IMG/VR virus record: IMGVR_UViG_3300029775_000005
Coordinates: 1-42,752 of that record
Reading direction: 5' to 3' (one strand)
Origin: a virus
DNA length: 42,752 nt
Below the pieces are notes generated by a model. That model was not told the DNA's origin, did not search any database, and saw only the letters and a program-made list of their open reading frames with translations. Positions 7,925 through 35,254 of the stretch are shown in pieces. Position numbers and translations under genes: made by a program. Position 1 is the stretch's first letter; the number at the start of each line of letters is the position of its first letter.

Positions 7925-8283
7925 TATGCGCTCCTCCCGACCGTCGTCTGAACCTGGAACGTCGAACCGTGGGTCGAATCGATCAGAACCGGCTCCCGGG
8001 TCTCCCTGCGGTACATGTCGCCGGCCGTCGGGGTGGCGGCCTTATGGACGCCGAGCTCCGTGATCATCGTGTTGAGTTCGCCCGGGTTGACGGTGCAGGT
8101 CCAGGTCACCACGGCGCCGGACTGGGTGACCGTGGCGGCCTTCCGGAGCACCTCGGTCTCGAGGGCGGTGTCCTGGCGGGTCGGGTCGGTCGTGCCGGTG
8201 CCGAAGCTCATCCAGCCGTAGGCCGCCCGGATCAGTTCGGCCGTCCCGGCCAGGCCGTCGTCAACGATTGCTTCGCCTGTCAT
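7924..8283 (-). CDS. Tail-collar / baseplate-fibre attachment protein
   Basis: FGTGTTDPTRQDTALETE...ELGV resembles the P2 gpH N-terminal type domain. Confidence 0.65.
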   Translation of the reverse strand: MTGEAIVDDGLAGTAELIRAAYGWMSFGTGTTDPTRQDTALETEVLRKAATVTQSGAVVTWTCTVNPGELNTMITELGVHKAATPTAGDMYRRETREPVLIDSTHGSTFQVQTTVGRSA

Positions 8284-8324
8284 GCCGGAGGGGTCGGCCG
8301 GAGGCGGTTAAAAAGGAAAGTCGG
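8281..8324 (-). promoter_or_regulatory. Late-promoter element, copy 1
   Basis: CCGAC at -41, TTTTTAA at -31..-25 and CCGAC at -14 relative to ATG 8283. Confidence 0.8.
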
Positions 8325-8326
8325 GG

Positions 8327-9001
8327 TTACTGCTCAAATGGGGTGACGAGGGCCGGCCCGGTCGCCAGGGTCAGGTATTTCCCGCCGTAGGGGTATGTGC
8401 CCCAGGGCGAGAGGCCCCATCCGCCTCTGCTCCCGGTATTGATGACCATGATCGTGCTCGGCCGGGTTCCCAGGGCCAGGTCGAGCGGGGTGAGGTCGAT
8501 CGTCGTCTGGTTGATGTTGAACGCCACGCCGGCTGCCTTTCCGCGGTTCACCTGGTCCTCGAGGATCGCCAGGCTGAACGGGAGGGTATTCTCGCCGGCC
8601 AGCCGGATCCTGAACGATGCATCCGGGTCGTAGGCCTGCCGCTCGAGGATCTCGACCTGCTCCGCCGGGCAGCCGGTGACCCGGGATACGATCGTCTTGA
8701 TGTCCTGGACGGTGCCGCAACTCAGCCGCTGCGCCTGCGCCCCCAGGATCCGGCTCCGGTAGTCGTCGTCGGTCTCGAAGAGTTCCCGGCTGCAGCTGAA
8801 GAGGGCGCCGATGGCGTCCAGGCTCGCTCCCGTTGCCCGGAGGATGTGGTGGGCGTCGACGACCCGGGCGAGGGTCTCCTGCAGGGCATTCATCTCATCG
8901 GCGGTGACGGCCAGGGTGCGATAGGTTACCGTCTCCCGGCCGCGCCGGAAGGCTGAGGGCAGCCGGTCCATCATCCGGTCGGCTCGTTCAGTCCCGTCCA
9001 T
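8327..9001 (-). CDS. Baseplate wedge protein (gpI-like)
   Basis: GASLDAIGALF...ETDDDYRSRI...KAAGV; position after baseplate J. Confidence 0.75.
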   Translation of the reverse strand: MDGTERADRMMDRLPSAFRRGRETVTYRTLAVTADEMNALQETLARVVDAHHILRATGASLDAIGALFSCSRELFETDDDYRSRILGAQAQRLSCGTVQDIKTIVSRVTGCPAEQVEILERQAYDPDASFRIRLAGENTLPFSLAILEDQVNRGKAAGVAFNINQTTIDLTPLDLALGTRPSTIMVINTGSRGGWGLSPWGTYPYGGKYLTLATGPALVTPFEQ

Positions 9002-33586: not shown

Positions 33587-33593
33587 CCGGGCC

Positions 33594-35213
33594 CTACTCC
33601 TCCAGATAGGCCTGGACGTCCCGGCGCCAGCGTTCCAGTTCCTCTAGGATCTCCTCCCGAGCCCGGGATCCGGCCTGCAGGACGGGTTTCGGGACGCCTG
33701 CCTGGGATGCGGTATCCTGGACCGCTCCCAGGAACATCGCCCGGACCGCCTGGTCCTGGGTGAGCCCGAGGGCCCGGGCGACCTCCTGGAGCGGTCCGCT
33801 GCGGTCCTGCTCCGGCCCGGATCCCGGCTGCTCCTCCTCTGCACCGGGCGGGGCTCCTCCTGCACCGGGGGCCGGTGCAGCGTAGGGGTCCGGGGGCTCC
33901 TCACCTTCGCCGAGCGGGTAGCCGAGTTCGTCGAGGAGTTTTTGCCGCTGCGAGGGGGTCATGAGCGGGGCCCAGGCGGCCATCGCCTGAGCCTTCTCGA
34001 TCTTGTTCTCGGGGGTGAGGTCCTCGAACTCGATCCAGATGGATTTCGCCCGGTTCCCCCAGGTCGCCTCCGCGAGCGGGGCCAGGAGTTCGTCCTCCAG
34101 GACCTCGGCGAAGAGCGCCCGGTCGGGGGCCAGGTCGCGCTCAAAAAACTGTAGTTGGATCTCGCCGACGCTCCGGTTGCTGCTCGTCGATTCGGTGAAC
34201 GAATCGGCGAACCCCATACCAGCGATCAGCTGGTTCTCCATGTGCTCCTGATGCCGGATCACGCCGACCGGGTTGCCCTTCGTCTCGAGGATATCGAGTT
34301 CGAAGCCGACCGGCTTGTAGACGTCCTGGCCGGCCTCCCGGGCCTCCCGGATCGCCTTGATGATCTCCGCCCGACGATCCCACCACTCCTCCGGGATCCC
34401 GAAGACCAGGAAGGGATCGGCGTATCGCCGGGCCATGATAGCCAGGTCGCGCTCGAGCCCGAGCTTGTTCATGATGACGGCGTAGTTCTGCTGCAGGATC
34501 CCGACGCCGTCGGGGTAGGACGGGCTCGGATACCGGGATATGGCGATCAGTTCGTCGGGCATCCAGAACGTCGTTGTTACGCCGGGGGTGGAAACGACCT
34601 GCCAGTGCTGTGCGTAACCGATGATCTCGTCGCCAGTCCCGGTCTTGAGGGTCGCGGCGTAGGCCTTCTCCGCGGCCGTCCCGCGGCGCTCGAGGTAGGC
34701 CTTGAGGTCTTTGACGTCCCGCTCCGTGTCCCGGAACGTCCGGATCGTCGGCGGGGGCAGGACCTTGATGCCGGCCAGGGTATCGATCGTGAGGGGGTGA
34801 TCCTTGTCGTCGTCCGGGACCTCGTGGTAGGGCTCGAGGAACGTCCGGCCGTATACGAGCCAGTGGGTGCCGGCCTCGACGGCCCGGTTCTGGAGATGGA
34901 CCCGGCGGGCGGCCGCCTGGAGGGCCTCCTCCTGCTTGTCGTCGTCGCTGCAGACCCAGAACGCCATCGCGTTCTTTGCGATCGACCGGACGATCCGGCC
35001 GACCTTGCCCTGGTTGGCCGCCCATTCCGCCCAGGTATCCCATCCGCCCTTGGGCTTGAACTTCGGATCGTAGAGGGCGCCGGAGTCGCCGCCGCCGTCT
35101 GCCCGTTTCACCTGCCACTGGGGCGGGATGGCGCCGAAGGAGAAGAGTCCGTCTGTGGATTTCAGAGCCTGGAACGTCTTGTTCCGGACCGGGCTCCGGG
35201 TCGTTTTCCGCAT
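33594..35213 (-). CDS. Portal protein, 539 aa
   Basis: Follows TerL; DUF935/SPP1-like layout with acidic Pro-rich tail. Confidence 0.85.
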   Translation of the reverse strand: MRKTTRSPVRNKTFQALKSTDGLFSFGAIPPQWQVKRADGGGDSGALYDPKFKPKGGWDTWAEWAANQGKVGRIVRSIAKNAMAFWVCSDDDKQEEALQAAARRVHLQNRAVEAGTHWLVYGRTFLEPYHEVPDDDKDHPLTIDTLAGIKVLPPPTIRTFRDTERDVKDLKAYLERRGTAAEKAYAATLKTGTGDEIIGYAQHWQVVSTPGVTTTFWMPDELIAISRYPSPSYPDGVGILQQNYAVIMNKLGLERDLAIMARRYADPFLVFGIPEEWWDRRAEIIKAIREAREAGQDVYKPVGFELDILETKGNPVGVIRHQEHMENQLIAGMGFADSFTESTSSNRSVGEIQLQFFERDLAPDRALFAEVLEDELLAPLAEATWGNRAKSIWIEFEDLTPENKIEKAQAMAAWAPLMTPSQRQKLLDELGYPLGEGEEPPDPYAAPAPGAGGAPPGAEEEQPGSGPEQDRSGPLQEVARALGLTQDQAVRAMFLGAVQDTASQAGVPKPVLQAGSRAREEILEELERWRRDVQAYLEE

Positions 35214-35254
35214 GCCTGTGGCGTCGGCCGGAGGCGCTTAAAAAGGAAAGTCGG
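35211..35254 (-). promoter_or_regulatory. Late-promoter element, copy 11
   Basis: Consensus copy before ATG 35213. Confidence 0.85.

Follow-up and report, generated by a model that had tools for sequence, protein, structure and literature searches.

A repeated 44-nucleotide element ahead of the virion genes of a contractile-tailed archaeal virus: a probable core promoter class of its lineage

The IMG/VR virus record IMGVR_UViG_3300029775_000005, which was analysed over its whole length of 42,752 bp (referred to here as the window) and has a G+C content of 66%, represents a contractile-tailed archaeal virus with Mu-type head genes. Nearly all of its genes lie on the minus strand, and on this coding strand we find 11 copies of an element of ~44 nt, each of which ends in the ATG of an open reading frame (ORF) of the virion module. 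We put at about three in four the probability that every copy forms a full archaeal core promoter with leaderless starts and that this promoter class is peculiar to the virus lineage. Broadly, and with the A of the ATG numbered as +1, an upstream CYGAC box at -41 to -37 followed by TTTNC would take the place where the (extended) B recognition element (BRE) normally lies, TTTWTAW at -31 to -25 would serve as the TATA box, a second CYGAC, conserved in part and carrying an A at -11, would fall at the proximal promoter element, and a pyrimidine at -1 with A at +1 would form the initiator. Transcription by the host RNA polymerase, guided by TBP and TFB, would begin on the A of the ATG or 1-2 nt away from it; the leading gene of every short operon would then be translated from an mRNA that lacks a leader, and translation of the later genes would rely on Shine-Dalgarno (SD) sites. 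Between 35.2 kb and 7.9 kb, the eleven promoters would divide the module of virion and probable lysis genes into units of ~0.3-8 kb. An initial annotation of this DNA had already proposed a separate promoter class for the virion genes, and that proposal is upheld by the conservation of the element among related viruses, its position ahead of the same orthologues and its absence from host chromosomes.

The repeated element and its register

Nine of the 11 copies (listed in Table 1) are in exact register, with CCGAC at -41 to -37, TTTTTAA at -31 to -25, CCGAC at -14 to -10 and C at -1, the exceptions within this set being a TCGAC first box in the copy before the ATG at 25704 and a TTTAAAT box in the copy at 29754. 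The copies at 24674 and 18622 are shifted, with the first box at -40, and at 18622 the second CCGAC stands at -20 and not at -14. The copies at 35213 and 30381 are identical over 44 nt, and the copy at 25704 deviates from them at base 1 alone. Pattern searching and direct reading of the DNA agree in all these respects with the initial annotation, which had placed the element at this register before the same 11 ATGs, with two copies shifted by 1 nt, one of them without the -14 box, and three copies identical over 43 nt. Apart from the variants, the copies differ in their spacers but not in either CCGAC box, the TATA or the C at -1, as functional constraint would predict. The gapped pattern is matched 10 times in the window as against a mean of 0.4 and a maximum of 3 in 100 dinucleotide-preserving shuffles; a single one of these matches (5510-5554) does not represent a copy of the element and lies below the threshold of a position weight matrix built from the nine copies. 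With that matrix the nine copies score 52-74 bits, and no other site on either strand reaches 8 bits.

Two further minus-strand sites are possible degenerate relatives of the element. At 26251-26285 a CCGAC abuts ATAAAAAA, 29 nt before the ATG at 26250, where a GGAG is also present, and at 40351-40385 a TCGAC abuts TTTTTGA, 29 nt before the ATG at 40350.

Conservation in related viruses and absence from host chromosomes

The relatives sampled by profile-based scans are proviruses and viral contigs in metagenome-assembled genomes (MAGs) labelled Methanomicrobiaceae, Methanoregula, Archaeoglobales and Hydrothermarchaeota, together with 22 IMG/VR contigs. A scan of GTDB with the single portal protein had given no match, and the later profile-based scan gave six loci; no named relative was found by megablast or by tblastn with the portal against 50,697 phage records. 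Homologues of the portal are named from Methanoregula and Methanomicrobiaceae, in keeping with an earlier ascription of the system to methanogen viruses, though relatives also occur in MAGs of Archaeoglobales and Hydrothermarchaeota.

The 17-nt 5' half of the element, CYGAC-TTTNC-TTTWTAW, is kept in nearly all of the related contigs and proviruses, more than 25 in number and from 0.41 to 0.66 in G+C, almost without exception on the coding strand, and in 83 of 103 distinct instances (window and relatives taken together) an ATG that opens an ORF lies 39-42 nt from the start of the element. Reasonably complete relatives have about 8-13 copies each, all of them within the virion module. The element precedes the same orthologues from one genome to another, i.e., those of the portal, the protease/scaffold protein, the internal scaffold start, the sheath (in six relatives), the tape measure (in G001C9, G006, G007 and G008), the Dit-like protein, gp25 (in five relatives) and the 119-aa protein, whose orthologue is element-led in G008 and has the element just upstream in G010/L001. 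In the relatives the TerS-like gene is element-led as well. The element-led orthologous proteins are just 20-48% identical, and the retention of a non-coding 17-mer at this level of protein identity means that selection on it is strong.

Between the TATA and the ATG the sequence is particular to each genome. In 72 instances from the relatives, position -1 is C in 72% and T in 24% (pyrimidine in 96%), with A at +1, and the A at -11 is kept in 61%. A second CYGAC is found in only 14 of these 72 instances, exclusively at -14/-13. Of the paired CCGAC boxes to which the initial annotation had drawn attention, the second is retained only in part and coincides with the ordinary position of the proximal element. 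Certain copies in the two Hydrothermarchaeota proviruses lack an ATG at +41 and have a GGAGG-bearing leader there instead, and the persistence of the conserved half ahead of an SD leader indicates that it is a signal for transcription and not for translation or the start codon. The 17-mer CCGACTTTCCTTTTTAA also occurs exactly, once each, in two AT-rich IMG/VR viral contigs (L002 and L006, 31-34% G+C) that are otherwise unlike the window, probably by chance.

The motif appears to be confined to viral DNA in the hosts sampled. With the strict pattern, all matches in three host MAGs (G001-G003; 1.8-2.6 Mb) fall in the provirus contig (6 of 6, 6 of 6 and 2 of 2), and a reversed-pattern control gave 0 matches; when the pattern was relaxed to allow a free 4-nt spacer, a single match arose outside the proviruses, which equals the control. 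In an Archaeoglobales MAG (G004) the motif lies on four small contigs (C10, C69, C121 and C129), at least two of which show the ~1-kb spacing of the protease/scaffold pair, and this suggests that the bin holds more than one related virus or a fragmented one. Over these four host MAGs (about 8.5 Mb), the motif is not above control outside viral contigs. With strict and relaxed patterns alike at control level outside the provirus contigs, the idea of a host motif was rejected, and to the question, raised beforehand, of whether the motif might be equally common in the host, the answer from these MAGs is that it is virus-specific.

One copy of the element is nested within a gene. It lies in frame inside the protease/scaffold-like ORF, where the canonical TTTTTAA would read as an in-frame TAA; the nested copy reads TTTAAAT in its stead and is translated as D-F-A-L-N, so that promoter and protein sequence would share the same bases. 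The same in-frame internal copy is present in G001C9, G006, G007 and G008, each with an A-rich variant that replaces TTTTTAA (TTTAAAT or TTTAAAA in three of them, TTTATGT in G008). The nested copy would provide a separate transcript for a nested C-terminal scaffold protein, predicted from the sequence to be a separate product of 122 aa. An internally initiated scaffold of gp17 has been described in the virus HFTV1 (preprint 10.64898/2026.09.13.751334); the two cases are alike in having nested scaffold starts, and differ in that the start in our virus has a promoter element of its own.

Proposed promoter architecture and competing explanations

The TATA (8 nt) occupies -31 to -24 in nine of the 11 copies and is 1 nt closer in the other two, and its 3' edge is 23 nt from the ATG, a spacing that is counted here to the ATG and not to a mapped start site. 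In Methanocaldococcus jannaschii the spacing from TATA to transcription start has its mode at 23 nt among 134 mapped promoters and is 23 +/- 2 nt in 94% of them (PMC2699501), and in the archaeal "group D" genomes defined with GeneMarkS-2, which include 40 of 42 Methanomicrobia and 7 of 7 Archaeoglobi, leaderless genes have a promoter box ~26 nt away (PMC6028130). For these host classes the prediction is that operons generally open with a leaderless gene and continue with SD-led ones (PMC6028130), so that such a pattern is not unusual in itself. In the window an SD (at least 4 nt of GGAGG at a spacing of 3-12 nt) precedes none of the 11 element-led genes as compared to 40 of 60 other genes (Fisher p = 3.3e-5), which is the dual pattern expected if the element-led genes are the first genes of leaderless operons. 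The geometry had been taken from the outset to suit leaderless transcripts, and both the 23-nt spacing and the lack of an SD in 11 of 11 cases accord with this. At the initiator, position -1 is T in the variant at 18622 and C in the ten other window copies, with A at +1.

The region upstream of the TATA departs from the archaeal norm. Positions -36 to -32 read TYYCC in all window copies, with T or C at -34, and the relatives read TTTNC in the BRE window, so that pyrimidines are found where a purine-rich BRE would be looked for; the description of a pyrimidine-rich CCGAC segment in place of the purine BRE was in this respect accurate. In M. jannaschii, position -34 of the BRE is highly conserved, TFB makes backbone contacts and has C/G preferences at -40 to -37, and the proximal promoter element spans -11 to -2, with -11 and -10 the most conserved (PMC2699501). 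The first box and TTTNC fill the extended-BRE window exactly, but do so with pyrimidines (T/C at -34, C at -37), and the second box overlies the proximal-element window, with its A at -11. All four of the archaeal core-promoter positions are occupied by the element, the BRE being pyrimidine-rich and non-canonical. As the paired CCGAC boxes coincide with contacts of basal factors, three readings fit them: recognition of a variant BRE by one particular TFB, assistance to a TFB from an activator, and competition from a repressor. When set beside canonical core promoters and the group D starts (PMC2699501, PMC6028130), the element is alike in its TATA spacing of 23 nt, its pyrimidine at -1 and purine at +1, its A at -11 and its association of leaderless first genes with SD-led internal genes, and it differs in that the full 44 nt are nearly invariant within the genome and the motif is absent from the sampled host chromosomes.

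Several observations weigh against a complete core promoter with leaderless starts. The equivalent of BRE position -34 is T or C and not the conserved A, and basal factors may bind it poorly; the segment from -24 to -1 is ~79% GC in the virus, which is unfavourable for melting. In a host sample of 352 kb from one MAG, analysed with crude gene calls, there is G-enrichment at -12 to -7 and no marked TATA peak near -27, and leaderless starts may not be the habit of the sampled host. Initiation at these sites is predicted from geometry. In addition, no TFB, TBP, RNA polymerase or identifiable activator was found with Pfam and PHROGs among the about 70 ORFs of the window, and no non-structural protein is common to all of the relatives at BLAST level.

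Nonetheless, the promoters probably work poorly with the basal factors alone and have a dedicated factor that turns them on or off, because they combine a non-purine BRE with conservation across the viruses of different hosts and absence from chromosomes. The dedicated factor and the late timing are steps that we infer; a late regulon is plausible, as judged from gene content alone, given the virion and probable lysis genes downstream. The simplest alternative is that these are plain strong promoters of the host type, used by host TBP and TFB (perhaps a particular paralogue) without any viral factor, in which case the upstream box would be an extended-BRE variant and timing would come from elsewhere. 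We consider this possible, at well below even odds. It draws strength from the occupation of every canonical promoter position, from the TFB contacts and C/G preferences at -40 to -37 in M. jannaschii (PMC2699501) and from the failure to find a viral activator, but it does not readily account for a key BRE position with the wrong base class, for the absence of the motif from the four host MAGs outside viral contigs (bar the one control-level match) or for the presence of the same motif in hosts of 41% and 66% GC that belong to different phyla.

If a factor of the virus is involved, it is not an evident one. The initial annotation had envisaged a virus-encoded activator or a TFB substitute, which the survey of the ORFs neither bears out nor rules out, and had suggested as candidates the ribbon-helix-helix (RHH) and winged helix-turn-helix (wHTH) proteins of the window. 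By tblastn neither of these has a counterpart in the distant relatives at BLAST level, and they are poor candidates for readers of the box because those same relatives conserve it. An all-against-all BLAST of the ORFs of eight genomes recovered only clusters of the virion module and a TerS-like protein. The only lineage-wide proteins outside of obvious virion parts are two small Cys-rich proteins, of 81 aa and 128 aa, which travel as a unit and change position between genomes; in a Hydrothermarchaeota provirus (G002C6) the pair lies upstream of the TerS promoter. In the 128-aa protein C61, C91 and C95 are invariant and C58 is kept in at least 90%, and its matches to zf-FLZ, zf-FCS and TRASH are sub-threshold (atlas score 0.90; Pfam E ~0.005 in 1-2 of 11 members). 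Its predicted model has a pLDDT (predicted local distance difference test) score of 85.7, and the fold has no convincing match: the best Foldseek E-value is 0.27, VIA-align gives Z of at most 4.6 to COMM, Pur-alpha and PC4-like beta-beta-beta-alpha units, and sequence profiles of the PDB give E > 0.1. The protein is a weak candidate for a nucleic-acid binder, and both Cys-rich proteins are to be taken as leads only; since in most genomes they are encoded inside the regulon that they would control, a simple role as activators is argued against. Tentatively, and by analogy, CYGAC-TTTNC could be read by a lineage-conserved virus factor that acts as a late switch in the manner of P2 Ogr or Mu C, with one of the Cys-rich proteins as that factor or as a retargeter of TFB; we regard this as a speculative proposal with the odds clearly against it. 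Were it true, tailed viruses of archaea would possess a switch for late transcription that operates in hosts from no fewer than three orders or phyla.

Negative control offers a further, unlikely, explanation. The CYGAC boxes around the TATA would be an operator array, bound by a virus repressor that silences the virion operons in the lysogen, and the TATA and initiator would belong to an ordinary host promoter, an arrangement that may be likened to the sites of the SSV1 F55 repressor and to the "stoperators" of cluster A mycobacteriophages. In its favour, the relatives have been classified as proviruses, the genome codes for an RHH protein, the copies are many and in one orientation, and a protein bound to boxes that flank the TATA at -41 and -14 would occlude TFB and RNA polymerase. 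The first box, however, is kept across viruses that are 20-48% identical in their structural proteins and whose hosts are of different phyla, whereas immunity specificities would normally be expected to diverge quickly; the second box is present in about a fifth of the relative instances, those relatives lack the RHH and wHTH genes at BLAST level, and the missing purines of the BRE are left unexplained. On account of this conservation of the first box, we consider positive control, or specialised recognition by basal factors, likelier than an immunity repressor.

Oligo-T tracts serve in archaeal termination, and the T-tracts of the element (TTT, then TTTTT) might thus end the transcription of the upstream unit, the rest being incidental. 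The broken T5 run of the in-gene copy is consistent with this, but only 8 of 31 coding-strand T5 runs lie in elements, and the fixed distance to the ATG, the C at -1 and the conserved CYGAC would go unexplained; we consider such a terminator or insulator very improbable, and reject T-tract termination as the sole role, as T5 runs are not specific to the elements, while termination and promotion could coexist. Least probable of all is a signal at the RNA level (a processing site or translation enhancer) or a recombination boundary for module exchange, even though the element lies directly upstream of start codons, three copies are identical (one differing at base 1) and some small genes change position between relatives, since there is no stable or conserved RNA fold, the conserved half is far from the ATG and is kept even before a leader with an SD, and direct repeats, which favour deletions, must be kept by selection for another role. 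No RNA fold better than shuffles was obtained for the six copies that were folded (z -0.5 to +1.5), and on this basis a riboswitch, a processing hairpin and a hairpin terminator were all rejected.

Known systems and the genomic setting

The activator-dependent late promoters of temperate phages, which respond to the C protein of Mu or to the zinc-finger activators of P2 and 186 (Ogr/B), offer a parallel to a dedicated promoter class of the virion genes, in that several promoters of the virion module share an upstream site and a poor basal recognition element. With Mu there is the further resemblance of the head genes (portal, MuF and the nested protease/scaffold). Those systems belong to bacterial sigma-70 transcription and have about four promoters, as compared to eleven promoters and the archaeal TBP/TFB system here. 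The start-associated sequences of cluster K mycobacteriophages, which lie within a few nt of the start codon and to which a role in translation is ascribed, and the stoperators of cluster A, which bind the immunity repressor, are also short repeats in one orientation, with 10-30 repeats per genome at gene starts or in short gaps; our element differs from both in that its conserved part is a TATA-containing segment 25-41 nt upstream. Among archaeal viruses, the haloviruses HF1 and HF2 and their relatives have class I and II intergenic repeats that are reported to contain functional promoters (PMC7230728). Compared by description, they are like our element in being repeated intergenic elements, placed strategically with respect to transcripts (in our case, with respect to gene positions only) and conserved among related viruses. 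They are, however, long and AT-rich and occur in haloarchaeal myoviruses, whereas the element of the window, from an unrelated lineage, is of 44 nt, is G+C-rich outside of the 7-nt TATA and directly adjoins the ATG. Virus-specific promoter elements that occur as repeats are already known from HF1/HF2 (PMC7230728), and it is the motif and the lineage that are undescribed in the searchable literature; full-text literature searches found no description of the motif, of the lineage or of promoters of this kind in methanogen viruses.

According to the 2026 preprint on HFTV1 (10.64898/2026.09.13.751334), an RNA polymerase is encoded by none of the archaeal viruses known so far, and characterised viral regulators of transcription are few. 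The timing of gene expression in archaeal tailed viruses is largely unknown, and the element would add a sharply defined 44-nt promoter class that marks every virion operon and is conserved in viruses of Methanomicrobiales, Archaeoglobales and Hydrothermarchaeota. Because it departs from the canonical BRE at the place normally read by TFB, it may serve as a template for how a virus redirects the archaeal basal machinery. The motif is also a marker by which proviruses of the lineage can be found and oriented and their gene starts fixed.

The gene order of the window was annotated with the Pfam and PHROGs searches mentioned above. Read along the minus strand, small unannotated genes and a DNA methylase are followed by the large terminase and the head genes of Table 1, with a lower-GC stretch of two small ORFs and a TATA-like box after the MuF/ADP-ribosyltransferase gene. 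Downstream of the major capsid gene lie connector proteins, then four small genes with elements of their own and an inserted operon (23370->18646), after which come the sheath-like, tube, tape-measure, Dit-like, spike/PAAR-PKD, gp25 and Baseplate J genes, the fibre-like ORF and, at the end, miscellaneous genes.

Table 1. Copies of the element and other features of the window (copies are numbered in the direction of transcription; arrows run from start to end of a gene)
Feature	Positions	Strand	Remarks
Copy 1	35211..35254	-	ATG of the Mu-type portal gene (35213->33594); matrix score 73.6 bits
Copy 2	30379..30422	-	Before the 331-aa protease/scaffold-like gene (30381->29386); identical to copy 1
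Copy 3	29752..29795	-	In frame inside the 331-aa ORF; ends in Met210; TTTAAAT variant
Copy 4	25702..25745	-	Before a 114-aa protein (phrog_937, E 8.7e-6); TCGAC first box
Copy 5	24672..24714	-	Before a 175-aa protein; 43-nt variant with TATA-like CTTTTAT and the first box at -40
Copy 6	24075..24118	-	Before a 169-aa protein; matrix score 70.4 bits
Copy 7	18620..18662	-	Before a 79-aa protein; variant with the first box at -40 and the second CCGAC at -20
Copy 8	18327..18370	-	Before the sheath-like gene (18329->17286; weak DUF3383 match)
Copy 9	16195..16238	-	Before the 529-aa tape-measure-like gene
Copy 10	10442..10485	-	Before the gp25-like baseplate wedge gene, then Baseplate J
Copy 11	8281..8324	-	Before the 119-aa protein, then a 313-aa fibre-like ORF
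Large terminase	36640->35276	-	
Mu-type portal	35213->33594	-	Portal_Mu PF06074, E 6e-12
MuF fused to ADP-ribosyltransferase domain	33586->31172	-	PF03496, E 9.6e-7
Protease/scaffold-like protein, 331 aa	30381->29386	-	
Major capsid protein	28729->27794	-	
81-aa Cys-rich protein	26794..27039	-	Four invariant Cys; lineage-wide
128-aa Cys-rich protein	26385..26771	-	Four-Cys FCS/TRASH-like zinc finger
Canonical TTATATATA box	23441..23449	-	Purine-rich stretch upstream; 79 nt before the ATG at 23370; heads the inserted operon 23370->18646
Weak wHTH protein	20787-21041	-	Inserted operon
RHH-domain protein	18961..19467	-	PF01402, 24.0 bits against a cut-off of 20.5
NrdD-like protein, 134 aa	5035-5439	-	PF13597, E 2e-13

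The inserted operon and its promoter (18646-23450, minus strand) lie between genes of the tail module and have a canonical TATA and a 79-nt leader of their own, along with the RHH and weak wHTH genes. Further TTATATATA-type boxes occur at 6617 and 18857, and an A-rich box with a BRE-like purine-rich stretch occurs at 19507. The boxes at 23449 and 19507 are preceded by purine-rich stretches and followed by leaders, and the presence of such canonical boxes besides the element means that the genome uses two promoter styles. The suggestion that the other genes use TTATATATA-type boxes with leaders is partly right, with such boxes at 23449, 6617 and 18857 and an A-rich box at 19507. Two proteins of the inserted operon (22452-23045 and 19558-20082) are 71-78% identical to products of genes outside the virion module in L021 and L023, which are high-GC IMG/VR relatives. 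The sole AT-rich stretch of the genome, at 6440-7010, has several TATATATA-type boxes and is without a long ORF; positions 6001-8000 as a whole are 56% G+C. The 134-aa protein at 5035-5439 matches only the C-terminal glycyl-radical end of the anaerobic ribonucleotide reductase NrdD.

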